A stretch of DNA of 64,000 nt from an uncultured Rickettsiales bacterium (GTDB lineage Bacteria > Pseudomonadota > Alphaproteobacteria > Rickettsiales > SXRF01). Of the stretch, positions 43,482-57,030 are shown in pieces. The first letter of the stretch is position 1, and each line of letters opens with the position of its first letter. The translations under genes were made by a program, and so were the position numbers. The DNA lies in NCBI GenBank assembly GCA_964575095.1, contig CAZNPA010000005.1, positions 26,958 through 90,957 of the forward strand, in the 5' to 3' direction. The notes under the pieces were generated by a model that was given only the letters and a program-made list of their open reading frames with translations, ran no database searches and was not told the origin of the DNA.

Positions 43482-44054
43482 TCAGCGGTACGGAAACCAA
43501 CCTTCAGACGGCACTCGGCTAAAATCACTTCTAATTTTAGCAAAAATTTCTTCGGCAACTTTCCGCATTTCGAATATTACCGCCGTAGTCATATCGAGAT
43601 ATTGATCGCCTAATCCGGGATACGCCGGAATATCTTCAAATCTGGATTCCTTGAATTCTTTAGGAAGAGCCGCGATTACCCCATCCAATGCCGCGCTTAA
43701 GTCCGGAGACAATGCATTGGGCTGAATTCTTTTCTTAGCCTTCTCCAAATAAGATTCGCTATATAACAGGAGGCGATGAAAAATCTCCGCCCCGCCAGGG
43801 CTTTCTAATATTTTTTTAACGGCCATTCGCCCCAAGAGCTGATAGGGACCGTTTGAATTCGGATGCTGCATTTCATAAGATTCTGTAACCATCCGTAAAA
43901 TCACGTCCGGCTGAAGCCGCACAAACTCGCGTAGCGCATCATTGTAAATCGCATCGCTCATTCTGCTCAAGTCGCCGCTACGCAGTAATTTATCAAGAAA
44001 ACCCACGCCAAGTCTTCCTTTTCTATTTATTGCTACCCATGCGTAATGTATCAT
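43482..44054 (-). CDS. hypothetical protein (190 aa)
   Basis: This is an ORF-track entry. The sequence is visibly more AT-rich than the flanking synthetase genes, and I recognise no family. Confidence 0.5.
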   Translation of the reverse strand: MIHYAWVAINRKGRLGVGFLDKLLRSGDLSRMSDAIYNDALREFVRLQPDVILRMVTESYEMQHPNSNGPYQLLGRMAVKKILESPGGAEIFHRLLLYSESYLEKAKKRIQPNALSPDLSAALDGVIAALPKEFKESRFEDIPAYPGLGDQYLDMTTAVIFEMRKVAEEIFAKIRSDFSRVPSEGWFPYR

Positions 44055-44068
44055 AACTTTGCCTAAAT

Positions 44069-44851
44069 ATGAAGCTCCCCATCATCATCCTTGTTCGCCC
44101 GCAGCTGGGCGAAAATATCGGCGCGGTAGGCCGGGCGATGGCGAATTTTGGCTTGTCGGAACTCAGAATTGTGGCGCCGCGCGACGGCTGGCCGAATACA
44201 AAAGCATTGGAGATGGCCTCTGACGGAAAATCCATCGTCGAAGCGGCCAGAATATTTCCCGATTTGGTTTCGGCGATGCACGATATACAAATCGCCTACG
44301 CCACGACGGCGCGGCCGCGCGACATGGAAAAGCGCGTGGTGACGCCGGAGGTGGCTATGGCGGAGATAGATGCCGACGCTACGCGCTACGCCTTCGTCTT
44401 CGGGCCGGAGCGCACCGGGCTTGAGAACGAGGAAATCGTGATGTGCGATACGTTGATTACCATCCCGACCGACCCAAAAAAATCATCGCTCAACCTCGGC
44501 CAGTCGGCGGTGGTGGTGCTGTATGAGTGGTTTACTTGTCATCCTGAGCGAGCCGGAGGCGAGTCGAAGGATCTTCGGCATGGCAAGGTAATAGATCCTT
44601 CGACTTCGTCGCTACGCGACTCCGCTCAGGATGACAAGCTCGCCACCAAGAAAGACTGGCAAGGCTTGTTCGACCAGCTGGAAAGCTGCCTCGATGAGGT
44701 GAATTATTACCGCACGGCGCACAAGAAGCCGGTGATGTGGCAGAACATGAAGAATATGCTGCTGCGCGGCGCCTGGAACGAGCAGGAAGTGCGCACGTTT
44801 CGCGGCATGCTGCGCATCCTGTGGGAAGGACGAAAACCCCGGCGCAAATAA
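44069..44851 (+). CDS. SpoU/TrmH-family RNA 2'-O-methyltransferase (TrmJ-like) carrying an in-frame palindromic-element insertion
   Basis: This 260-aa ORF has ILVRPQLGENIGAVGRAMANFGL..., FVFGPERTGLENEE and IPTDPKKSSLNLGQSAVVVLYEW. An approximately 33-aa segment encoded by the repeat then follows. Confidence 0.85.
   Translation: MKLPIIILVRPQLGENIGAVGRAMANFGLSELRIVAPRDGWPNTKALEMASDGKSIVEAARIFPDLVSAMHDIQIAYATTARPRDMEKRVVTPEVAMAEIDADATRYAFVFGPERTGLENEEIVMCDTLITIPTDPKKSSLNLGQSAVVVLYEWFTCHPERAGGESKDLRHGKVIDPSTSSLRDSAQDDKLATKKDWQGLFDQLESCLDEVNYYRTAHKKPVMWQNMKNMLLRGAWNEQEVRTFRGMLRILWEGRKPRRK
44538..44635. repeat. palindromic repeat element inserted in frame within a CDS
   Basis: gtcatcctgagcgagccggaggcgagtcgaaggatc...gatccttcgacttcgtcgctacgcgactccgctcaggatgac has 13-bp terminal inverted repeats. 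It shares blocks with the 28134-28222 copy. It is translated as HPERAGGESKDLRHGKVIDPSTSSLRDSAQDD. Confidence 0.8.
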
Positions 44852-45002
44852 CGCACCGGTTGAAAAATGAGAATAATGCCGGTTAATATACTGTAATTAA
44901 TTAATAAAAAAACGTGATGAATCTCGGATATAAAAAAATATTCTAGTATTACGGGTAATGTGCTATGTACGGCATAGTGCAAATGATCCGGATAAAACCG
45001 TC

Positions 45003-46685
45003 ATGAAGAAACCCGCCCTGTTTCCTGCCCACGATTTCCAGATGCTGTTTGAATCGGTGCCCGGGCTTTATCTGGTGCTGACACCCGACCTCAGAATCAT
45101 TGCTGTCAGCAATGCCTATCTGCGCGCCACCATGACCAAACGCGAAGATATCCTCGGCCGAAAACTATTCGATATCTTTCCCGACAATCCGGATGATCCG
45201 AAAGCAACGGGAGAGCGTAATCTTAAATCATCGTTGCAGCGGGTATTGACTCACAAAATCACCGATGCCATGGCCATCCAGAAATACGACATACGCAAAC
45301 CGGAATCGGAAGGAGGCGCCTTCGAAGAACGCTACTGGAGCCCGGTCAATTCTCCCGTATTGAATGAACACGGGGAACTGATCTATATCATCCACCGCGC
45401 CGAAGACGTGACCGAATTCGTAACACTCAAGCAAAAAGACAAAGAATACCTCAAGGAAAATGAATCGCTGCGCATCCATGCTGAACAGATGGAAGCCGAA
45501 ATCTACGCCCGCGCGCAGGAAATAGCCGAAGCCAACCGTGAGCTGGAAAAACTATACGAACTCACCAAGAAAGAAGGTATGGCCCAGTTGCGCGCCGTCG
45601 TCGACCATGCGATCGACGGGCTTATCACCATCGACGCACGTGGGCATATCGAACGCTTCAACCCGGCCTGCGAGCGCATTTTCGGCTATAAGGCCGAGGA
45701 AGTCACCGGCCGCAACATCAAGATGCTGATGCCGGAACCCTACCACAGCGAACATGACGGCTACCTGAACAACCACCTCACCACCGGCAAGACAAAAATC
45801 ATAGGCACATCGGGACGCGAGGTGTCCGGCCGTCGCAAGGACGGATCGGTATTCCCGCTCGATCTTTCCGTCAGCAGCTTCACGCTCGACGATGGCGTAC
45901 ATTTTTCAGGCATCCTGCGCGACATCACGGCACGCAAACAGGCGGAAGAGCGTCTGGAAATGGCGGTGAGCGAATTGACCGAGTCCAACCAGCAGCTTGA
46001 GCGCTTCGCCCACATCTGCTCGCATGATTTGCAAGAACCGATCCGCGTCATCTCCAATTACACCGAGCGCCTTGCCCAGCACATGGCATCCTCCATGGAT
46101 GAAAAGGCGAGCCATTACATGCATTATATCGTTGACGGCGCCGCGCGTGCGCGGGAGCTGATCGGCTCCATACTCACCTATTCTCGCGTCGGCACCGAAA
46201 CCGAACCGCTGGAAACCATCGATTGCCGGGATCTGCTGGCCACCGTGCTGACGGATCTGGAACAGGCCATACAGGAAAGCGGTGCGCGGATAACGTTCGA
46301 TACGCTGCCGATCATTACCTGCCATCCGCCGCGTATGCGGCAACTGTTCCAGAATTTGCTGACCAATGCCCTCAAATTCCGCCGCAGCGACGTGCCGCCG
46401 CACGTGCATATCGGCGCCGAACGCAAAGGCGACGGCTGGCAATTCTCCGTCCGCGACAACGGCATCGGCATCGCGCCCGAATATAAGAATCGGGTGTTCG
46501 TCATCTTCCAGCGACTCAACCGGCGCGATGAATATCCCGGCACCGGCATAGGTCTGGCGTTGTGCAAAAAAATCGTCGAGCAGTACGATGGGAAAATCTG
46601 GCTCGAATCCCAGCCGGGCGAAGGCACCTGCTTCTTCTTCACCTTGCCGACGCTACGCCCGCAAGAAATGGCACAAACCGGCTAG
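45003..46685 (+). CDS. PAS-domain sensor histidine kinase
   Basis: Two PAS-like regions are followed by the H-box FAHICSHDLQEPIR and the HATPase N/G boxes (LLTNALKF, RDNGIGI, GTGIGLALCKKIV). The start is the ATG at 45003 within ORF 44958..46685. Confidence 0.88.
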   Translation: MKKPALFPAHDFQMLFESVPGLYLVLTPDLRIIAVSNAYLRATMTKREDILGRKLFDIFPDNPDDPKATGERNLKSSLQRVLTHKITDAMAIQKYDIRKPESEGGAFEERYWSPVNSPVLNEHGELIYIIHRAEDVTEFVTLKQKDKEYLKENESLRIHAEQMEAEIYARAQEIAEANRELEKLYELTKKEGMAQLRAVVDHAIDGLITIDARGHIERFNPACERIFGYKAEEVTGRNIKMLMPEPYHSEHDGYLNNHLTTGKTKIIGTSGREVSGRRKDGSVFPLDLSVSSFTLDDGVHFSGILRDITARKQAEERLEMAVSELTESNQQLERFAHICSHDLQEPIRVISNYTERLAQHMASSMDEKASHYMHYIVDGAARARELIGSILTYSRVGTETEPLETIDCRDLLATVLTDLEQAIQESGARITFDTLPIITCHPPRMRQLFQNLLTNALKFRRSDVPPHVHIGAERKGDGWQFSVRDNGIGIAPEYKNRVFVIFQRLNRRDEYPGTGIGLALCKKIVEQYDGKIWLESQPGEGTCFFFTLPTLRPQEMAQTG

Positions 46686-46693
46686 TCGGCGGT

Positions 46694-46744
46694 CTAACTC
46701 CGCCAGCGCAGGGTTTTTTCGCGCAGGCGGTTTTCAAACGGCGC
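46694..46744 (-). pseudogene. relic: last 16 codons plus stop of a Rieske-oxygenase gene
   Basis: The minus strand reads APFENRLREKTLRWRS*, identical in protein to the end of the intact gene at 47429-47479. There are 4 nt differences, all silent (cgt/cgc, agc/agt, TGA/TAG). Confidence 0.85.
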
Positions 46745-46812
46745 CTGGAGCGAGCAGGAAGTGCGCAGTTTCCGCGGCATGCTGCGCATTTTATGGGAAG
46801 AACGGAAGCCTA
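46740..46812 (+). pseudogene. relic: last 26 codons plus stop of a trmH-family methyltransferase gene
   Basis: The plus strand reads (G)AWSEQEVRSFRGMLRILWEERKPRKR*. The intact gene at 44771-44851 reads AWNEQEVRTFRGMLRILWEGRKPRRK*. No start codon is present. It joins the Rieske relic at a shared GGCGCC (46740-46745). Confidence 0.85.
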
Positions 46813-47427
46813 GAAAACGCTAAGCAACGCCTGTAGCGCCACCGTTGCCAGCACATCGAGCGCCGTAAAAATAAACAGCATCGCCAGCACGCCGCCGATC
46901 ATCCCCACCAGCATCAACACGCCATCGCGCTCCAGCATGCCTAGTGCGATCAGGCTCATCGCCACGCCCGGCAAGAAATTTCCGAACGGAATCGGCATCG
47001 ACAGAAGTATCGCCAGCAGCAAAAATATGACGCCGACAATGCGTTCCGCCACCCAGCTATGCATGAACGGCAGCCGCGGATGCAGCACGCGCTCAATCTT
47101 GCGCACCGGCACGCACGCCTTGCGCATGAAAGCAGCGAATTTCACTCGGGAAAATTTGTATTTTCTCACTTTTTTCGGAAGCCAGGGAACGGAGCGCCCC
47201 ATAATGATCTGAACCGCGATCAGCAGAATGGGAATGCCGGTAATGGCGGAAAATCCGGGCGGACTTGGAATCGGCAACGAGTTGGGCAGCGAAAATACCA
47301 GAATCGCCAGGCCGAAAGCGCGATCGCCCAGCAGCCGGAGAATTTCCTGAACGCTGATATCGCCGTCCCCATCGGTATGCTCCACCAGTGAGTGCAAAAC
47401 ATCGGAAGTGCGTTTAGGCTGGGTCAT
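46810..47427 (-). CDS. exoD: ExoD-family exopolysaccharide synthesis membrane protein
   Basis: MTQPKRTSDVL...ISVQEILRLLGDRAFGLAILVFSLPNSLPIPSPPGFSAITGIPILL is the ExoD pattern. The start was taken at the internal ATG (47427) of ORF 46810..47547. Confidence 0.8.
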   Translation of the reverse strand: MTQPKRTSDVLHSLVEHTDGDGDISVQEILRLLGDRAFGLAILVFSLPNSLPIPSPPGFSAITGIPILLIAVQIIMGRSVPWLPKKVRKYKFSRVKFAAFMRKACVPVRKIERVLHPRLPFMHSWVAERIVGVIFLLLAILLSMPIPFGNFLPGVAMSLIALGMLERDGVLMLVGMIGGVLAMLFIFTALDVLATVALQALLSVF

Positions 47428-47428
47428 G

Positions 47429-48478
47429 TCAGCTCCGCCAACGCAGGGTTTTTTCGCGCAGGCGGTTTTCAAACGGCGCCGCAGTGGTTTGCGACTCCAG
47501 ATAATCTTTCTTGAGCTTAAAATACCAGAGCGCCTGCTGGTCGGCATCGCCTAAGAGCATCAGCGACGGATGATCGCCGCGCAGTCCTTCCATCTGTTTT
47601 TTGACGGTCTCTAAATCTTGCCGGATAAACGCCTTGCCGAACGGCGCCAGCAGCGGCCGCAGAAGATTCAAGAGCGGCATGGTGGTGAACATGAACTGGT
47701 GCAGTTGCGTATTTTTTTCGTCGATGGGTGAAAGCGCCGTCAGCAAAACGATATGATGTTTGCCGATGGTGATGTGCTCGGTGCGCAACCCCGGCAGTTG
47801 AAACGTGATCTCGGTGACCGGCCGTCCGCCCAAGATTTTATAGGCGCGCGAATTGGACGACGGCGTGTGCGCCACCATTTTAAAACCCAATCCCACCGGC
47901 GCGAATTGCTTTTGCTTGGTATGGATCGAACGCGTACTCCGCCACCACCACGACGCATGCACGAACGGCCCGTGCGACGGATCCATGAGGCCGATCACCG
48001 CGTGGTCGATGTTGCAGGGAAAAACCACCGAGTCGATGTGCGTGAATGTTTTGTGCGCCGGGCCGGGAACCACCGGCAGATCCGGAAACGGGCCCTGCGT
48101 CTTGCTTCCGGCCGGCGGCATATACACCCAGATCAGCCCGTTTTCCTCGCGGCAGGGAAACCGTGTCGCTTTGACGCGCGAGATGTCGATGTTGTCTTCC
48201 GGCGTCAGCGACGGGATTTTGGTACAGACGCCGTCAATGCCGAAGCGCCAGCCGTGATAGCAGCATTCGATCTCGCAGCCGTCGAATTTACCGTACGAAA
48301 GCGGCATACCGCGGTGCGGACAAAAATCGCGCAGCGCGAATACATCGCCATTTTTGGCGCGGCCAAGCAATATCGGCTGGCCGAGCAGCGTGACTTTTTG
48401 TGTCTTGCCGCGCGCGACTTCCACCGCCGGAGATGCGATGTACCACAGGTTATGTAAAAGTTCGGGGATGGGGTTCAT
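47429..48478 (-). CDS. Rieske [2Fe-2S] domain oxygenase
   Basis: This 349-aa ORF has CPHRGMPLSYG...CCYHGWRF (Rieske CxH...CxxH) and a non-heme-iron catalytic domain. Confidence 0.85.
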   Translation of the reverse strand: MNPIPELLHNLWYIASPAVEVARGKTQKVTLLGQPILLGRAKNGDVFALRDFCPHRGMPLSYGKFDGCEIECCYHGWRFGIDGVCTKIPSLTPEDNIDISRVKATRFPCREENGLIWVYMPPAGSKTQGPFPDLPVVPGPAHKTFTHIDSVVFPCNIDHAVIGLMDPSHGPFVHASWWWRSTRSIHTKQKQFAPVGLGFKMVAHTPSSNSRAYKILGGRPVTEITFQLPGLRTEHITIGKHHIVLLTALSPIDEKNTQLHQFMFTTMPLLNLLRPLLAPFGKAFIRQDLETVKKQMEGLRGDHPSLMLLGDADQQALWYFKLKKDYLESQTTAAPFENRLREKTLRWRS

Positions 48479-48553
48479 GGGACTCTTTTATAGCATGTAG
48501 GCCCATATTGCCAAGTTGCAAACGAGCCCCTATACTCCCGCTCCCGCTAGTTA

Positions 48554-48629
48554 CGACCCATTCGTCTAACGGTTAGGACACGACCCTCTCAAGGTCGCAA
48601 TACGGGTTCGATTCCCGTATGGGTCGCCA
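48554..48629 (+). tRNA. tRNA-Glu (anticodon CUC)
   Basis: A manual fold gives gacccat-tc-gtc-taacggttag-gac-a-cgacc-ctCTCaa-ggtcg-caat-acggg-ttcgatt-cccgt-atgggtc-g-cca. It is collinear with E. coli tRNA-Glu architecture. Confidence 0.85.
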
Positions 48630-50162
48630 TTCTTGAAATGTTCCGGCGCCCAGGAACAGGTCGAATGGTTTTCTCAAAGAATATTCGAGCCTTGCGCCTT
48701 TCAGCCGCAGGTTCGAAAACACGAAATTGATGAGACGCCGTTTTCCGGCCGCGTTCGAACCTACGAACAAAAAGTGCGCTTTTCCGGCCAGTTCCAGCGT
48801 ATCGGCCACGGCGTCGCGGAAACTGTCGTCAGCGGCGGTCATGGCGTTCATCAGGCCGGAAAGCTCGATCTGGCGCTGCTTGAGTTTGTCGCGCTTGCTG
48901 TCATGCTCCTCGCGGCTGACGGCATTATCCAGCAGCAAGTCCATCAACCTGTCGAGTTTGCCCTGCAGGGCAACATATTCTTTGCCCAGTTCGTCCATCT
49001 GCCGTTTGTGGAATACCTTCTCGGTCTCGCAGGCATGGCGGGTATATTCGAGCACGTCCTCGAATAAATCGGCGTCGGGCGCCATGTTCTTGAACACCTG
49101 CTCGATCTCGGCCAGCACGTCGGCCTCCCGCACCCACATCTTTTTGGCCGAGTCTTCGGGGCGGCGGCAGATGAGGTAAGTAAATTCGCCGGTATTGCCG
49201 TTGCGGTATTGCTTGGTCTTGGTATCGGCGGTCACAGTTTTGCCGCTGACGGCGCAGGTAATGAGGCCGCGCAGGGCATATTCTTTTTCCGCATAGGCAA
49301 AGGGTTTCCTGTGCCAGCCCAGCCGCACGGCCTGGCATTTGTCGAACAGCTCTTTGGAGATGACCGGCGGATAGGCATGCGGGTAGCGCTTGCCCTTGAT
49401 TTCCATTTCGCCGTAGTAGAACGGGTTCTGCAGCAGCTTGTGCATCTGCGACAGCGCCAGCGGCTCTTTTTTGCGGCGGGCGTTGGTGAGGCCCCATTTA
49501 CGGCCTTTGGTCACCATCTCGCCCAGCGTGTGGCTGCCGGTGGCGTATTCCTCGAACAGGCGGCGCACCAGCGGCGCGCGGGATTCGTCCAGCAGCACCG
49601 TGCCGCGCCCGCGGCTGTCCCTGGCGTTCGTGTAGCCCACCGGCGCGGCGGCGATCCATTCGCCGGTGCGGATCTTCTGATCGATGCTGCGCTTGACGTT
49701 ATCACGCAGCGAATCGACGTAGCTTTGCGCCATGACGACGCCGATGCTCCACATCAGCCGTTCCTGCGATACCGATTCGCGGTGGATGATGTAATTCTCG
49801 GTGTTGAAATGCAGCTCCAGCTTGCCTTCCTGAATCAGCGCGTCGAGCAGCGGGTATTCCTTGAAGCTGCGCTGAACCCTGTCCACTTTATCCGCCACCA
49901 GCGCCACGCAATCGCGCTGTCTGCGGATGAAGTCGATCATCTGCATGAAATCCTTGCGGTCGCCCTGTGTGGAGGATTCGATCACCTCGAAGGTCTGCAC
50001 AACCTCCAGCCGCTTGCGCTCGCAATATTGCTGCAGCCGGTGCTTCTGCGCGGCGATGGAATAGCCTTCCTCCTGCTCTTTCGTAGAAACGCGCGCCAGA
50101 ATGATGGCCTTTTTCGGACCATTGGGCTTATGCTGTTCAAATGGAATGATTTTTCTGCTCAT
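48573..50162 (-). CDS. large serine recombinase (integrase)
   Basis: This 529-aa ORF has an N-terminal resolvase catalytic domain (AIILARVSTKEQEEGYSIAAQ), then a recombinase domain and a coiled-coil region. The last approximately 19 codons (..PIRESNPYCDLERVVS) are read antisense through tRNA-Glu. Confidence 0.88.
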   Translation of the reverse strand: MSRKIIPFEQHKPNGPKKAIILARVSTKEQEEGYSIAAQKHRLQQYCERKRLEVVQTFEVIESSTQGDRKDFMQMIDFIRRQRDCVALVADKVDRVQRSFKEYPLLDALIQEGKLELHFNTENYIIHRESVSQERLMWSIGVVMAQSYVDSLRDNVKRSIDQKIRTGEWIAAAPVGYTNARDSRGRGTVLLDESRAPLVRRLFEEYATGSHTLGEMVTKGRKWGLTNARRKKEPLALSQMHKLLQNPFYYGEMEIKGKRYPHAYPPVISKELFDKCQAVRLGWHRKPFAYAEKEYALRGLITCAVSGKTVTADTKTKQYRNGNTGEFTYLICRRPEDSAKKMWVREADVLAEIEQVFKNMAPDADLFEDVLEYTRHACETEKVFHKRQMDELGKEYVALQGKLDRLMDLLLDNAVSREEHDSKRDKLKQRQIELSGLMNAMTAADDSFRDAVADTLELAGKAHFLFVGSNAAGKRRLINFVFSNLRLKGARLEYSLRKPFDLFLGAGTFQEWRPIRESNPYCDLERVVS

Positions 50163-50362
50163 GGCTCGACATTACCGTCACGTCCGGAGAGTTCAACCAG
50201 TGTTTGCGTGAATCCGATGAGGTTGCGCGCCGCTTCCCGCGCCTCGGCATCGGTGATCTTAAAATCGTATTTCCGCTTGATTTTATAGACGATTCGCTCG
50301 AACAGCTGCGATTGCGTCAGCTCGCTGGCCTTACGTTCGAGAATGTCCTGATCTATCGGCAT
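50159..50362 (-). CDS. hypothetical small protein (67 aa)
   Basis: This ORF-track entry overlaps the recombinase start by 4 nt. Confidence 0.45.
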   Translation of the reverse strand: MPIDQDILERKASELTQSQLFERIVYKIKRKYDFKITDAEAREAARNLIGFTQTLVELSGRDGNVEP

Positions 50363-50387
50363 GGCAATCGCTTTGACGGGAGATTGG

Positions 50388-50783
50388 CTACTCGTCGCAA
50401 TCCCTGTCCCGGCCGGGGAACATCCCGTCGCAGACCAGGTAGCCGCCTTCCGGCTTCGGAAGATCGCAGCTTTCGACCAGCCGTTCCGCTTTCCCGATGA
50501 CGGCTTCCGCCCGCCTGCAATAATCTTCGTCTATGCGGGCAAGCAGTCCCTTACCGGCGAGGCGCTGCAAAGAGCACTGGTAATTGCGGACGAACAGCCG
50601 GAGCGTATGCACGATGCCGGCGAGCGTTTCCGCTTGTCCCTGGTATTGCGCCATGAGCATATGGATTATCTCCACGCCCTCGCAGGCGTCATGGTTGAAC
50701 AGGGAGAGCGCCGAGCGCTCGTCGTAGGGAAAATACATCCAGTCTTTCCTGGCTGATTCGGTAAGGGCTTTGCGGTGGGTCAT
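50388..50783 (-). CDS. hypothetical protein (131 aa)
   Basis: This is an ORF-track entry with no family I recognise. Confidence 0.45.
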   Translation of the reverse strand: MTHRKALTESARKDWMYFPYDERSALSLFNHDACEGVEIIHMLMAQYQGQAETLAGIVHTLRLFVRNYQCSLQRLAGKGLLARIDEDYCRRAEAVIGKAERLVESCDLPKPEGGYLVCDGMFPGRDRDCDE

Positions 50784-50886
50784 GGGGTAGTCTCCTGAAG
50801 TGATGGTGGGGGGATAATTGCTAATTCCGCTAAAGCCGCTAACCGGGGCGGATAAGCAAAATCAGCAGGATTAGCGGCGGCGGCGA

Positions 50887-53274
50887 TCATGGTTTCGCCT
50901 CCAGGGCGACGGGATTGACTTCGTATTGCCGGTTGCGACCGACTGTCTGCTCGCGCAGGTAGCTGTGTTCGCAGAGCGTCTTCAGCGCCGCATGGCGCGC
51001 CGCGCGCTGGCGCAGCGGGTTGGGGCCGTGCGTGGCAATCTCGCTGGCGGTGACGGCACGGTGGTTTTTCCGCCTCAGCCAGTCGAGCAGCAGGCGCGCG
51101 TGCGTCACTTCTTCCGGCGTGTCGATATGGTTGAACACGCGCAGCGTTTCGTGCAGGTGCCATTCCACGATGGCAATGGCGCGGCGCATGACGTCCGCTC
51201 CTATGTCGCCGTCAGCGCCATGCTGGAAGATATGGAAGTTGCAGGCGAGCCTGGCGGCGTTCTCCGCCGACTTGGCCGCGAAATCGCGGATGGAGTAGAA
51301 TTGCCCCTGCGCGGCGATGGCGGCTTCCGTCTCATTATAATACGCCACCCAGAGCTGGCGCGCTTCGGCGCTCAAGGAAAGAAGCGGCGGCGTCAGTTCG
51401 CCGGTTTCCTGATCCACCGGCAATGGCATTTCCAGCAGCGCATGGATGCGCGCATGGAACGCCTCCAGTACGCGGTCGAGCGATTGAGGCTCTTTGTAGA
51501 AGCGCGTGCCCATTGTGCTGTCCGGGCAGGCCAGCAATACGCGGGCAAGAAAGCCGGTATTGCGGCTCTGGCCGTCGGCCATATTGACCAGCGCCTTCAG
51601 CACTGAAAGCTGCATCATCAGCGAACAGGTCAGCCGCCTGCCGTAGAAGCTCGCGCCCTCGCTGGTAATGCGCTGGCGCTTGTAACCATTACCGTCCCAC
51701 AGCCGGTTGACCAGGCCGAAATAGCGCAGGCAACGTTCCGGGTGGAACCCATGTGAGCCAACGACGATGGCGGCTTCGTCACTATAGAGCGCCGACGATG
51801 GATGCCCCTTGGCCAGCTCATCGATCAATGCCTCCTGCGTCACGTCCTCGAACAGCAGCGTCGGGATGATGGGCAGGCGTGGCGCGTCTTTATCCAATCC
51901 CTGCAATGCTTCCTGCAGCGCGGCGAGTTGATCCGCCGTGCCGCCGTTCTTGCTGGCGCCGGTGATCTGCTGGATGATGCCCGCGCGAGTGGCCATATAG
52001 GCATCGACCAGGATTTTCGCCTGCTTCAACTCCGCCTGCATGGCGAGCCGCCGCGTCTTTTCCCATTCTCTTGACGCCTTGGAGAACACCTTATCGGCGG
52101 AGGTCTTGCGCTCGCCGCTGTCAGCGGTGACGATGAAATTGAGCGACGACGGGCCGGTCAGCGCCTCGTCGCGCGCCACGTCCGCCAGCGCCTGACTGGC
52201 CAGGCTGACATTCGCCAGCGCCGCGATGGCGACGATGGGAAGCGGCTGCTGGCCATACGCCTGGTAGCCGGCCACGGCCTCGCGGATAACGTCCGGCAGC
52301 GCCTCCACCGGGTACGGTTCCTGCGCGGCGATTGCCTGCGTCAGCGGCGTAGGCATCTGCCACTCGCTAATGCTGGCATTGCTAATTCTGCTAACCGTCC
52401 GGTCGCCATTAGCAGTATTAGCAGATTCAGCGTTAGCAGGAATGTCGCGCGGCTTCTGCTTTCCGGCGGTGATGCCGCTGTCGATAGTGGGTGTAATCTC
52501 CGAATCTTCCAGCCCGATGGCGCGCGCGGCGGCGTGCAGTTCGCGCCTTACCGTATCCTCGTCCAGACCCGCCGCGATCAACTGGCCGAGGCTGAATGAT
52601 GCACGGTTCAGCCGGTCATTGCGCTGTCCGTCGAGCGCCTGTGTCAGTATTGTCAGTTCGCTTTCCAACGCCTTGCCGAGATACGTTCCGGCGGGAACAT
52701 TGTCCGCCGCGCCGTTGAAATCCAGCTTCTGGCTATCTTCCGGCACGGCCACCAGCTCCAGCAGCCATAAAGGCGCTTCCGCCAGCGGCGCATCCCACGG
52801 GCTGACGATCCACTCATACACTGAACCATTCGGATGGATTGACGGCGGCGCGACGACATAGCCGCCGTTACCGCGATTGTCGATGCCGGGCAGCACTTCG
52901 CCATGCACGCTTCGGCCTGCCAGATTGCGCACATCATATCCGGCGGGGAATCGGAAATAATAATGCTGTCCCCTGCCGGTTCTGGCGGTAGGCGTATGCG
53001 GCAGATCGCCGTGTTCTGCAATCAGCTTCGCCAGCATCTCGCGCCCTTGCTCGCCGTCCACGTCCAGCACGAAGCAGCCCGACACGCTGCCGGTGGCGAT
53101 GCCGATATTGTAGGGGTTATAGCGGTAGGCCGTTTCCCAGGCGACGCATTGCGCCGTCGTCGCCAGGGCAGTCTGGTATTCCTTCCAGCTGCCGACAGGC
53201 TTTTTGCTGCGGGGCAGAAGCGGAAAGACGCTGAAATTCAGCTCCCGCAGGCCGGAGAATGGTGCGTTATTCAT
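50887..53274 (-). CDS. bifunctional primase-polymerase (PrimPol) N-terminal domain fused to a DUF3987-type helicase-like domain
   Basis: This 795-aa ORF has VFPLLPRSKKPVGSWKEYQ...GIATGSVSGCFVLDVD...GGYVVAPPSIHPNG (PrimPol). The C-terminal two-thirds resemble DUF3987/D5-like replicases of phage satellites and integrative elements. Confidence 0.8.
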   Translation of the reverse strand: MNNAPFSGLRELNFSVFPLLPRSKKPVGSWKEYQTALATTAQCVAWETAYRYNPYNIGIATGSVSGCFVLDVDGEQGREMLAKLIAEHGDLPHTPTARTGRGQHYYFRFPAGYDVRNLAGRSVHGEVLPGIDNRGNGGYVVAPPSIHPNGSVYEWIVSPWDAPLAEAPLWLLELVAVPEDSQKLDFNGAADNVPAGTYLGKALESELTILTQALDGQRNDRLNRASFSLGQLIAAGLDEDTVRRELHAAARAIGLEDSEITPTIDSGITAGKQKPRDIPANAESANTANGDRTVSRISNASISEWQMPTPLTQAIAAQEPYPVEALPDVIREAVAGYQAYGQQPLPIVAIAALANVSLASQALADVARDEALTGPSSLNFIVTADSGERKTSADKVFSKASREWEKTRRLAMQAELKQAKILVDAYMATRAGIIQQITGASKNGGTADQLAALQEALQGLDKDAPRLPIIPTLLFEDVTQEALIDELAKGHPSSALYSDEAAIVVGSHGFHPERCLRYFGLVNRLWDGNGYKRQRITSEGASFYGRRLTCSLMMQLSVLKALVNMADGQSRNTGFLARVLLACPDSTMGTRFYKEPQSLDRVLEAFHARIHALLEMPLPVDQETGELTPPLLSLSAEARQLWVAYYNETEAAIAAQGQFYSIRDFAAKSAENAARLACNFHIFQHGADGDIGADVMRRAIAIVEWHLHETLRVFNHIDTPEEVTHARLLLDWLRRKNHRAVTASEIATHGPNPLRQRAARHAALKTLCEHSYLREQTVGRNRQYEVNPVALEAKP

Positions 53275-53479
53275 GCGCGCCGCCCTGCGTATTGCGCGCG
53301 ATAAATTCCCGAAGATCGGACAGGCGGTATTTCACCAGTCGCCCGACCTTGATATAAGGGAGCCTGTAGCGTCCCTCGCTGGCCCATACCGATAGGGTAT
53401 TTTCCGCGACGCCGAGATAATCGGCCGCCTCCTTCCGCGTAAGCAGCCGCTCACCGTCTGGATGTTCTGAATGTGTCAT
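53267..53479 (-). CDS. AlpA/Xis-like helix-turn-helix DNA-binding protein
   Basis: This 70-aa ORF has LLTRKEAADYLGVAENTLSVWASEGRYRLPYIKVGRLVKYRLSDLREFI, the excisionase/MerR-type HTH. It overlaps the replicase start by 8 nt. Confidence 0.8.
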   Translation of the reverse strand: MTHSEHPDGERLLTRKEAADYLGVAENTLSVWASEGRYRLPYIKVGRLVKYRLSDLREFIARNTQGGAHE

Positions 53480-53651
53480 GCTGCACCTCCGTCATGCGTG
53501 ATAATAGGAGGTCAGCGTGGACGAAAAATAATCGAAAAAAAACGTCGGAACCGTCACGACGTCAAGGGTGGCACCCTGGGTGCTACCCAGAAAATATCAA
53601 GAGAATAGAATCAGTTCATGGGTGGCATGCTTTGCTTTTTTCAAGCCCTTT

Positions 53652-54416
53652 TCAGGCAAGGGTTTTATCCTTCTTCGGCACGGCTATCCGGTTGCCGCCC
53701 TTCCGCGATTCAGGAGTGCGGATAAATGTGGCCATGTCCTCCACATTGCTTTTGGAAAGTTTAAGCCCCTTCTTCTTTGCCTGCTCCGCCACCCATTCCC
53801 TGACGCTGTCTTTATAGGGCGGGTCGGACTCGTCGATGTCGAAATATTCCGCCGCTTCCAGCATCAAATGGATATACGGCGAAATATAATAATCATATGG
53901 CTTTACGGGCATCTGGCCGCCAGGCGGCGTAGCGATGGCTGTGCTGTTCTGGCGCTCTTTCACCAGCGCGACGGTTTCCGCCGGCACGTCTTCCCTGCGC
54001 TGGAAGAATACGCCGACGTAATGCAGGCCGTGCCCCGACGCTTCCGATTTTTCGGGGTCGAGATCGAGAGAAAGCCAGTAATGCGGCATGATGATCTCGA
54101 CGGCGCTCTGCGGCGTCACCGGCAGCGGCGTACCGAAGCCATACAGCGCCTCCTGCGACAGCAGATAGTGCGTAATGTGGCGGTAGGCAGTCTTATCGAT
54201 GCGGTCGAGATAATTATCAAGCGCTTTCATCTCATCGGCGAATACCTGCCGGTCGTGATCGTTCTTGCGGCACTGGATAAACATATCCTGCGCGAACTTC
54301 TTCTCGCGCAGGCATTCGTCCAGGCGATCCTTCAAATCCGGGCGCATGGCGATGGCGATATTGCGCAGCTGCACGAGGGTAAAGCGTTCGGCGTCGGGAT
54401 TGAACAGCATGGGCAT
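53652..54416 (-). CDS. hypothetical protein (254 aa)
   Basis: This is an ORF-track entry with no family I recognise. Confidence 0.5.
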   Translation of the reverse strand: MPMLFNPDAERFTLVQLRNIAIAMRPDLKDRLDECLREKKFAQDMFIQCRKNDHDRQVFADEMKALDNYLDRIDKTAYRHITHYLLSQEALYGFGTPLPVTPQSAVEIIMPHYWLSLDLDPEKSEASGHGLHYVGVFFQRREDVPAETVALVKERQNSTAIATPPGGQMPVKPYDYYISPYIHLMLEAAEYFDIDESDPPYKDSVREWVAEQAKKKGLKLSKSNVEDMATFIRTPESRKGGNRIAVPKKDKTLA

Positions 54417-54538
54417 GACATCGTAATTGAAACGCCGTCATCATACTGAGCATGATGAATTTATACCAGAAGTGATTTGGATGGATGAGGATACAAAAAG
54501 CCCCGTACCATTTTGAAACGGTACGGGGCGGGAAAAAT

Positions 54539-55027
54539 TCAGGCGATTTTATAGACGAGTTCGCCGCCGGCGTTCCGGGCGGCGCTGACGGAGAGCTTCA
54601 GCTTCCTCTGCAGGTTGGAGACGGCGCCGCGCACCGAGTGCTTCTGCCATCCGGTCGCGTTCTGCAGCTGGAGGACGCTCGCCCCTTCCTTGCGCGACAG
54701 CAGGTCGATGATTACCTGCTGCTTCGAGACGCCGCCGGATTTTTTGTCAGCTCTGGCTTTTTTTACGGGCGCCATCGCCGGCTTTGCCGCATTCTTTCCT
54801 TTCGGCCTGCTTTTGCCGATGGCGGCAAAGCCCTTGTCGGAGATGACGTAGGCAACGCCGTCGGCATCCGGGTCTTCGATAATCAGGCCATGTTTCAGCA
54901 TGGATTCGACCACCCGGTCGCGGATCGCCGGGTTTTTAATGTCGCGCATATGCTCGCGGATGTCGATTTTCGGCTGCCTGCTCGCCGCCAGTAGAATACG
55001 GCGCTGGGCGGGTGATAGCTTGTTCAT
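54539..55027 (-). CDS. DUF3489-family protein
   Basis: This 162-aa ORF has a C-terminal KQQVIIDLLSRKEGASVLQLQNATGWQKHSVRGAVSNLQRKLKLSV, the DUF3489 pattern as I recall it. Confidence 0.65.
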   Translation of the reverse strand: MNKLSPAQRRILLAASRQPKIDIREHMRDIKNPAIRDRVVESMLKHGLIIEDPDADGVAYVISDKGFAAIGKSRPKGKNAAKPAMAPVKKARADKKSGGVSKQQVIIDLLSRKEGASVLQLQNATGWQKHSVRGAVSNLQRKLKLSVSAARNAGGELVYKIA

Positions 55028-55191
55028 AAAAACTCCTCATGGTTGGTTACAAAAATGCCCTCGCGGGCATGGCCATGAATGAGTGGAAACCGGAAATCAT
55101 CAAGTGGATTAACTACATAATCACATTATTTATCAATATATTGCTTCGTAAATGCCGTTGACATCTGTAAAATTCGATGCATGGCGCTTAT

Positions 55192-56446: not shown

Positions 56447-56558
56447 GCGAATATGGCCATTAAAAGCATCGAACCCCGAATTAACCGGAAATCCATTGTT
56501 TTTACTGGGCTAGATCGGAGTAATTGATTTTTAATGAGTTTCTGGTAAACTGCTGGTT

Positions 56559-56933
56559 ATGCATCTGACGCGCATCATGCTTACATTGTTACTGTCGTTC
56601 AGCATCGCGCTGTCGGGATTTCCCGTGCAGGCGGAGCCGATGCCGGAATGCCCGATGGCTGCAAAAATGCAAATGCAGCAGATGGACATGGAGGACTGTG
56701 ACGGCTGTGATAAAATGACCAAGCAGGAACAGAAGAAATCCGGTTGCTGCGACGATGCCGCCTGTAACGCCAAATGTTCGGCCTTGAGCGGCGGCGTTAC
56801 GATGAATCTTCCCTCTTATAAAACCGATCTGCCCGCCGTTGGCGATAAGGACAATCGGTTTTATCCCGCCGATGCCGCGATTGCATCCGCGCATCGGGGC
56901 TCCCAAGAACGCCCTCCCAAGACCCTCTCGTAA
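56559..56933 (+). CDS. secreted Cys/Met-rich putative metal-binding protein
   Basis: This 124-aa ORF has a signal peptide ending VQA, then PECPMAAKMQMQQMDMEDCDGCDK...SGCCDDAACNAKC (7 Cys). It lies directly upstream of the efflux operon. Confidence 0.55.
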   Translation: MHLTRIMLTLLLSFSIALSGFPVQAEPMPECPMAAKMQMQQMDMEDCDGCDKMTKQEQKKSGCCDDAACNAKCSALSGGVTMNLPSYKTDLPAVGDKDNRFYPADAAIASAHRGSQERPPKTLS

Positions 56934-57030
56934 GGAGAAGTGTGTCCGCAATTTGGCGTAAAGCCTAGCGGATTGCTTCTCGCATGTGTTCTGCCGCGCG
57001 CGCGGCAGTCAGTTCACTACGAGAGGTTTT

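Follow-up and report, generated by a model that had tools for sequence, protein, structure and literature searches.

A small tRNA-linked integrative element with a large serine recombinase and a PICMI-like gene arrangement in an uncultured Rickettsiales bacterium

The phage-inducible chromosomal minimalist islands (PICMI) of Vibrionaceae have a size of about 6.1 kb and contain six genes (PMC10803314). Their integrase gene int is overlapped, through an ATGA, by iolg, which is required for excision, whereas alpA serves as a switch, the primase carries DUF3987 or DUF5906, and capsid genes are absent (PMC10803314). PICMI are packaged as concatemers by a virulent helper phage, some members possess a defence hotspot beside the attachment (att) site, and integration occurs next to fis, which the authors of that study call a hallmark (PMC10803314). 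The corresponding SatelliteFinder model asks for PF00589 or PF00239 together with PF07508, for PF05930 or PF12728, and for PF13148 or PF19263 (PMC10803314). Tycheposons, which were found to be enriched in vesicles, include tRNA-linked elements with a primase/helicase and, in a minority of cases, a large serine recombinase (LSR) (10.1101/2020.12.28.424599). Here, we describe a small element of related design at a tRNA-Glu(CTC) gene in a stretch of 64,000 nucleotides, referred to as the window, from an uncultured Rickettsiales bacterium (assembly GCA_964575095.1, contig CAZNPA010000005.1, positions 26,958 to 90,957).

The element comprises six genes in about 5.9 kb, extending from ~48,611-48,630 to ~54,480-54,538 of the window, and very probably constitutes a discrete integrative replicon mobilised by its LSR. 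On balance, we favour the reading that the window copy is intact and free of cargo, and that it belongs to a family of small elements that integrate and replicate themselves. Its status as a satellite is an assignment by analogy that we make tentatively and rate slightly below an even chance.

Gene content and relatives of the element

The seven genes on a single strand that an initial annotation of this DNA had listed were recovered at the same coordinates, as seven minus-strand open reading frames (ORFs) within 48,573-55,027 in the ORF list of the window, and are borne out by their Pfam domains (Table 1). The gene described there only as a recombinase does encode an integrase, which displays matches to PF00239 (1.8e-17) and PF07508 (6.8e-12), is assigned to PHROG 95, integrase (2e-65), and is distantly similar to Ccr and XisF. 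The match to the zinc ribbon family Zn_ribbon_recom (PF13408) is weak (0.0094, under the family cutoff), and by its sequence the protein is an LSR with a zinc ribbon part recognised only below cutoff. A reading as tyrosine integrase, the type employed by P4 and by phage-inducible chromosomal islands (PICI), is ruled out by the Resolvase and Recombinase domains. The integrase-AlpA-primase combination of the PICMI model, here represented by PF00239 with PF07508, PF12728 and PF13148, was found within 5.9 kb.

The proteins p67, p131 and p254 displayed no family match in Pfam, PHROG, NCBIfam or PADLOC. When the element proteins were scanned with Pfam, PHROGs and NCBIfam, no structural or packaging family was detected, and the earlier observation that capsid, tail, terminase and conjugation genes are missing is thus upheld for these three collections. 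Similarly, no gene for a small terminase subunit (TerS), for capsid-size control or for helper interference was detected among the element proteins in Pfam, PHROG and PADLOC scans. With PADLOC, only the HTH_17 protein gave a match, to a generic helix-turn-helix (HTH) model (mad1), and p67, p131, p254 and the DUF3489 protein gave none.

A search with the LSR returned 15 loci and look-ups of p254 homologues added more. In more than ten related loci the same order is seen, namely p254, HTH_17, PrimPol-helicase, an optional small gene, p67, and LSR, and this order is common to L014, L013, L043, L051-L056, and L046. The conserved unit, measured from the block upstream of p254 to the tRNA 3' end, has a length of 5.26-5.87 kb. 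Depending on the relative, PrimPol is fused to DUF3987 or to D5_N/DUF5906 (PF19263), and the position between replicase and p67 is taken by p131 or by an ORF of 48 aa, or is empty. L014 aligns collinearly with the window over 4,994 bp, with a nucleotide identity of 80.7% and protein identities of 46% for p254, 94% for HTH_17, 83% for PrimPol, 84% for p131, 78% for p67, and 73% for the LSR. The hosts of L014 and L013 are the genomes G015 and G023, both from the family of the window genome; a transfer of these two elements across classes had been considered and was dropped for this reason. Complete p254 genes occur in 3 of 44 genomes of the family, distributed over three genera, from which we conclude that the element is sporadic and was horizontally acquired; vertical conservation in all relatives, which according to the initial annotation would speak against a mobile element, is therefore absent. 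The comparison with related elements at tRNA-Glu that had been proposed did separate core from variable genes, and among the 12 loci in which a tRNA overlaps the LSR 3' end only L054 shares tRNA-Glu(CTC) with the window, the others being located at different tRNAs.

The tRNA-Glu target and the ends of the element

The tRNA-Glu(CTC) gene of the window is the sole CTC copy in its genome, and the unoccupied tRNA-Glu(CTC) of G015 matches it at 100% identity; an Rfam scan revealed nothing but this tRNA. The last 18 codons of the LSR gene (W-R-P-I-R-E-S-N-P...) are antisense to tRNA positions 19-75. Overlap between the LSR 3' end and a tRNA was observed in 12 loci, including the window, and the tRNAs concerned are Arg-TCT (5 loci), Arg-ACG, Glu-CTC (window and L054), Pro, Gln, Asp, and Ser. 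In all eight sequences that were translated, those of the window and of seven loci, the LSR frame runs through the antisense of the tRNA in identical phase, and a TGG (Trp) codon in the LSR tail corresponds to the antisense of the tRNA CCA.

In G015, the 3' end of the tRNA-Arg recurs exactly, over 19 bp (TGGCGTGCCCGGCAGGAAT), at a distance of 21 kb from the tRNA. The region G015:C103:27042-48110, which contains L082 and L014, appears as a 21-kb island bounded by this exact repeat of the tRNA-Arg(TCT) 3' end, and no second recombinase was found among ten of its ORFs scanned with Pfam. From the repeat and from the lack of another recombinase among those ORFs it follows that this clade of LSRs integrates in the 3' part of tRNAs, with the crossover at or inside the 19 bp. 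This mode of integration, in which an LSR uses an att site at the 3' end of its own gene, is strongly supported. According to the proposed mechanism, the LSR would insert the element into the 3' part of the tRNA gene and the element would bring a replacement 3' end, so that the tRNA stays intact and the LSR frame continues into it. Such a replacement explains why the window tRNA is intact and identical to the unoccupied copy in G015, and also why the LSR frame is fixed relative to the tRNA. In the circular form predicted for G015 from its sequence, the LSR would stop at a TGA directly after the 19-bp core. A manual search for dyad symmetry in the phage-type att site (attP) gave several incompatible cores, and hence no crossover dinucleotide was assigned.

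The right end of the element probably lies at 54,480-54,538, a placement that follows from a stop of homology, from the neighbouring housekeeping genes, from a palindrome that repeats the LSR-end/tRNA junction, and from a degenerate repeat in L054. Homology to all nine relatives ends at ~54,478, at a conserved block with which the core begins and which, judged by its sequence, probably serves as p254 promoter. Housekeeping genes (ackA, yjeF, tonB) directly abut p254 in L054, L056 and L053, and L054 targets the same tRNA-Glu in a syntenic host. Just outside the block, a near-perfect palindrome is the best candidate for the right end (attR) that the sequence offers; part of it, the loop and left arm at 54,508-54,529, is an imperfect repeat of the junction between LSR end and tRNA, with agreement at 18 of 23 positions, a score reached by 21 of 500 shuffles. 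At the equivalent place, L054 contains a degenerate tRNA-like repeat (9 of 500 shuffles). With as many as 3 mismatches tolerated in 21 nt, neither an exact nor a near-exact repeat of the tRNA-Glu 3' end was detected in the window or in the genome. In the empty-site comparison, the unoccupied tRNA-Glu(CTC) of G015 is identical but has a different downstream flank, and because of this flank, and because the relatives are related only at the family level, the crossover was not mapped to the base. A metagenome scan for the circular junction of LSR end and p254, with the spacing taken without the hairpin, gave 12 matches, all of them due to chance, and IMG/VR contained one distant LSR relative and no p254 relative.

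The surroundings of the tRNA-Glu genes differ between genomes. In G015 (L040 9330-9727, contig G015:C44), a small ORF that by eye resembles a GIY-YIG endonuclease is located between tRNA-Glu(TTC) and tRNA-Glu(CTC), and in the window's genome these two tRNAs lie on separate contigs. In the syntenic relative L054 (10684-12237), tRNA-Glu(CTC) is directly followed by genes for ExoD and a SpoU methylase, whereas in the window (44000-48629) a Rieske oxygenase gene separates the tRNA from the ExoD homologue.

Core genes, candidate control sites and cargo

In the initial annotation, four unassigned proteins (p67, p131, p254, and the DUF3489 protein) were put forward as candidate accessory genes for helper interference or defence. 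This proposal is not borne out for three of them, as sequence comparison places p254 and p67 among the conserved core genes of the family and not among its cargo, and the DUF3489 gene is phage-derived and lies beyond the homology stop; none of the four matches a defence model in PADLOC. Only p131 is a variable internal gene. The profile and structure searches recommended for these proteins yielded no family for p67, p131 and p254 and no fold match, and they did reveal a recurrent domain at the C-terminus of p254.

The p254 protein begins with a helical hairpin, continues with a middle part specific to the family, and closes with a C-terminal domain of ~80 aa with the motif Y-x-S-P-Y...M-A-T-x-I-R-x-P-E-x-Q-x-G-G. 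At least 464 representative proteins end in this domain; in ten scanned members no Pfam model covers it, and no match was obtained in phage or plasmid collections. For p254, no PDB sequence match was found, and an AlphaFold2 model with a predicted local distance difference test (pLDDT) value of 58.7 gave a best Foldseek E-value of 1.1, to the DNA-binding domain of ColE2 Rep, which is not significant. Proteins with the C-terminal domain are encoded between a P4-type tyrosine integrase and AlpA/HTH_17 in L070 (1887-2867), L080 (8079-9212) and L081 (8227-8916), and they share with p254 only the ~80-aa domain. One of these islands adds a Toprim primase and a helicase and another one a type I restriction-modification system. 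When the element is drawn as a circle, its order is int, X (p254), alpA, primase, the same as in these islands, and based on this shared order p254 is proposed to be a resident regulator.

The p67 gene is located directly upstream of the LSR clade in 16 loci, Bacteroidota included, and its product contains an invariant A..N motif. By analogy with iolg of PICMI, p67 is a candidate recombination directionality factor or cofactor. The sole profile match of p67, to a designed repeat protein, was rejected as spurious. In contrast to these core genes, p131 occurs only with the DUF3987-type replicase (window and L014), only 3 such proteins were found among 5.8 billion clusters searched, and a single-sequence AlphaFold2 model of it reached a pLDDT of 51.

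The near-palindromes and the ACGTCG-N9-CGACGT hairpin reported upstream of the excisionase-replicase pair are present and conserved in two related elements, and the palindromes are candidate operators as had been suggested. They read GGGTGGCACCC at 53566-53576 and GGGTGCTACCC at 53578-53588, and their pattern occurs 4 times in the window, where 0.2 occurrences are expected. They immediately precede the hairpin (53542-53562), which is conserved in the two related elements with compensatory changes and, with T8 following it on the minus strand, resembles an intrinsic terminator downstream of p254. A conserved CCTCC...GGAGG pairing at approximately 53483-53512, shared by the window, L014 and L013, could occlude the HTH_17 ribosome-binding site.

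With regard to function, we infer from gene arrangement and protein families that p254, which appears to have its own conserved promoter and terminator and is located just upstream of the palindromes, may regulate the HTH_17-replicase-p67-LSR operon, that the HTH_17 protein may be a switch of the AlpA/Xis type, and that p67, translationally coupled to the LSR through the ATGA overlap, may act as its cofactor or directionality factor. The PrimPol-DUF3987 protein, acting at dyads of GCTAAY iterons, would copy the excised circle. As packaging and transfer genes are absent, the element would spread by hitch-hiking, most probably inside helper-phage capsids in the manner of PICMI, and a dependence on such a phage is presumed by analogy.

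A second HTH_17 gene is present in the same genome (C4:111144-112460), 50% identical to that of the element and located beside a homologue of a 729-aa prophage-region protein and near a tRNA-Met (C4:113494-113570), which suggests another small island of the integrase-alpA-primase kind.

Defence genes were encountered in relatives of the element, in a slot between p254 and the distal att site. The island in G015 encodes a complete type I Zorya system (ZorA 1.8e-128, ZorB 1e-83, ZorD 1e-270, and a ZorC that is split in two, with ORFs of 324 and 121 aa), AbiEi/AbiEii, and genes that resemble arsenic-resistance genes, judged from N-terminal sequences alone, and all of these are located inside the 19-bp repeats together with the p254-to-LSR module. 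L043 encodes an Avs4-like protein of 1,780 aa, and L046 an Old-family nuclease and a Mokosh-like helicase. The expectation of a hotspot with anti-phage genes therefore applies to the family, at this slot, and not to the unassigned genes of the window, whose copy seems to be cargo-less, the slot between p254 and the distal att site appearing empty. With more than ten elements that are cargo-free or contain Zorya, AbiE, Avs-like or Old genes, a comparative set is at hand that separates core from hotspot genes. A remote version of the LSR-p67 module in Emticicia soli (L016 2461-9163) lies beside a complete type I restriction-modification system, and its LSR end gave no tRNA match.

Table 1. Features of the element and its borders, in window coordinates
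Feature	Position	Strand	Remarks
Large serine recombinase (LSR), 529 aa	48573..50162	-	Resolvase + Recombinase (Pfam); catalytic motif ARVSTKEQ
p67, small helical protein, 67 aa	50159..50362	-	stop overlaps LSR start by 4 nt (ATGA)
p131, orphan helical protein, 131 aa	50388..50783	-	AGGAG ribosome-binding site
PrimPol-DUF3987 primase-helicase replicase, 795 aa	50887..53274	-	Pfam Prim-Pol + DUF3987 (PF13148)
HTH_17 (PF12728; AlpA/excisionase-type) protein, 70 aa	53267..53479	-	8-nt overlap with replicase start
p254, signature core gene of the family, 254 aa	53652..54416	-	probable start at conserved MLFNP, 54410
tRNA-Glu(CTC), integration target	48555..48629	+	intact
Sigma-70-like promoter of tRNA-Glu (TTGCCA-N17-TATACT)	48508..48536	+	between Rieske gene start and tRNA
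Block conserved in all nine relatives (AAATCA-N3-CTGGTATAAAT...), probable p254 promoter	54420..54478	-	extended -10-like TGGTATAAA
Near-perfect 30-nt palindrome, then T-run; attR candidate	54500..54529	-	28 nt identical in L056
Two adjacent GGGT-N3-ACCC palindromes, candidate operators	53566..53588	.	conserved in L014 and L013
Hairpin ACGTCG-N9-CGACGT, then T8; terminator-like	53534..53562	-	
Dyad cluster of GCTAAY / RTTAGC hexamers, candidate origin	50820..50875	.	3' of replicase gene, conserved in L014
Second GCTAAY / RTTAGC dyad cluster, candidate origin	52366..52437	.	replicase linker, conserved in L014
DUF3489 gene (54539-55027, 162 aa; Pfam DUF3489) + ~156 nt upstream	54539..55183	-	

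Alternative readings and comparison with known systems

The DUF3489 gene adjoins the right end of the element, and together with ~156 nt upstream, up to 55,183, it is homologous to genes in four genomes of the family. The homologue contexts that were examined (G013, G009, and one locus in G015) are prophage-like, beside C5 methylase and terminase genes, and Pfam detected in the G013 context a gpA terminase, N6 and C5 methylases and a lambda-type portal. No solved relative of the DUF3489 protein was found. The gene is likely to be a phage remnant in a tRNA-linked island and to lie outside the element, and the last ~650 nt of the interval that the initial annotation had assigned to the element probably do so as well. 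In the DUF3489 leader, a terminator-like hairpin is located at 55055-55070, between predicted promoter and start codon. Farther downstream, the start of a copper-efflux block (56518-56950) is 91% identical to contig C20 of G015, whereas the Rieske oxygenase, the sole housekeeping-type gene compared across the family, has an identity of ~70-73%, and from this difference it is concluded that the metal block was horizontally acquired.

These neighbours raise the question of how far the mobile unit extends. It is unlikely, in our judgement, that it exceeds 5.9 kb, with the conserved module as the tRNA-proximal end of an island whose distal att site has decayed and whose cargo would be DUF3489, DUF2063, a half-size TauE gene and possibly the copper-efflux block. 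The horizontal origin of the metal block would fit such an island, as would the situation in G015, where 21 kb separate the tRNA from its exact repeat and cargo follows immediately on the conserved AAATCA block, and the DUF3489 gene holds the position of the L046 cargo, with equal orientation and a distance of 58 nt to the block. However, the genome-wide search described above recovered the tRNA-Glu 3' end only once, DUF3489 is separated from the core by an imperfect, att-like repeat and by a hairpin that in L056 directly adjoins a housekeeping gene, and the metal block of G015 is on another contig and not beside its LSR element. That the locus is a fragment of a larger prophage or of an integrative and conjugative element is extremely improbable, even though the adjoining DUF3489 gene is phage-derived, as host genes are present on the tRNA side and the same unit of 5-6 genes lies between housekeeping genes in several genomes. 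The search beyond the metal block for capsid, terminase or type IV secretion system genes, any of which had been named as a sign of a larger element, gave none up to the contig end.

A non-satellite integrative replicon, comparable to tycheposons or to other 'cryptic' tRNA-linked elements, is rather unlikely but deserves more weight. It would spread by vesicles, transformation or generalized transduction, or persist mainly by vertical descent, and it would account for the lack of TerS, capsid-size and interference genes and of a resident helper prophage, all the more as some vesicle-enriched tycheposons combine an LSR with primase/helicase (10.1101/2020.12.28.424599). On the other hand, the gene grammar of the element is that of PICMI, an experimentally proven satellite likewise devoid of packaging genes, whose helper is a virulent phage, so that no resident prophage is needed, and the anti-phage cargo in relatives is typical of satellites.

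Some points weigh against the reading of the window copy as an intact member of a satellite-like family. This copy has no exact att repeat, and its right end is placed by comparison and by a repeat of marginal significance (p about 0.04). Genome comparisons, the metagenome scan and IMG/VR revealed no excised circle, empty site or packaged form, and the window's own genome contains neither the terminase nor the portal of the prophages seen in its family-mates. The roles of p254, p67 and p131 are deduced only, with poor models for p254 and p131 and no fold match.

A bolder proposal, which we consider quite improbable, is that the element represents the founding member of a phage-satellite family in environmental lineages labelled as Alphaproteobacteria, in which a tRNA-targeting LSR carries attP in its own 3' coding end, p67 is part of a directionality switch and p254 proteins are master regulators. 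If so, integration and excision would rewrite the C-terminal tail of the LSR, which in the integrated form of G015 reads 7 codons further into the tRNA, and this rewriting together with the coupled p67 would form a built-in directionality switch, while proteins of the p254 type would be common helper-sensing master regulators of integrase-alpA-primase satellites. Independently of this proposal, two recurrent uncharacterised parts are brought to attention, the LSR-coupled p67 family and the p254 C-terminal domain (at least 464 representative clusters, no Pfam model), and tRNA-specific serine integrases with an identifiable small partner might be of interest for builders of genome-integration tools.

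Among known systems, LSRs of phages and of the staphylococcal cassette chromosome mec (phiC31, Bxb1, A118, Ccr) share with that of the element the architecture of resolvase, recombinase and zinc ribbon, and in both cases a small accessory protein is expected to set directionality. Unlike these LSRs, the one described here is directed at the 3' ends of tRNAs, where the stretch of identity is long (19 bp in G015), its attP lies within its own 3' coding end, and the gene of the candidate directionality factor precedes int and is translationally coupled to it. Tycheposons and 'cryptic' tRNA-linked elements of marine bacteria resemble the element in integrating at tRNA sites with a partial tRNA repeat at the far end, which is exact over 19 bp in G015 and only degenerate in the window. 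In addition, tycheposons possess their own primase/helicase and variable cargo beside a conserved integration-replication module, and leftovers accrete beside the tRNA. They differ in host lineage and from the window copy in having cargo, and the likeness is drawn from layout and not from homology of hallmark genes.

P4-like and CP4-57-type islands also have an AlpA-type switch directly upstream of a primase-helicase, integrate at tRNAs and contain defence hotspots, and it is in islands of this kind (L070, L080, L081) that proteins with the p254 C-terminal domain occur. In contrast to P4, no Psu-, Sid-, Delta- or epsilon-type gene was recognised in the element with PHROG and Pfam, there is no tyrosine integrase, and the replicase is a PrimPol and not a Toprim primase. 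PICI and capsid-forming PICI (cfPICI) differ in that tyrosine integrase, terS, ppi, cpm and capsid genes are all absent from the element (Pfam, PHROG). The P4- or PICI-like satellite layout of the initial annotation is thus correct with respect to the integrase-alpA-primase arrangement, whereas the serine recombinase and the better agreement with PICMI set the element apart from both.

PICMI, like the element, are about 6 kb in size and contain six genes, namely int, a gene overlapping int, an AlpA/HTH_17 gene, a DUF3987/DUF5906 primase, and one or two uncharacterised genes, and in neither case are capsid-remodelling or packaging genes present. The correspondence of p67 with iolg is drawn from position and ATGA overlap. 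PICMI differ in their Vibrio hosts and in the location next to fis, a hallmark that fails for the element, which is located at tRNA 3' ends (in the window at tRNA-Glu(CTC)), and also in that the integrase of the element is an LSR whose gene overlaps the att site, that p254 is an extra core gene, and that gene order relative to att is not the same. For an element known here from its genes alone, PICMI, rather than P4 or PICI, are the best match among known systems, and this likeness would extend the grammar of minimalist satellites past Vibrionaceae, to a serine integrase and to tRNA targets.

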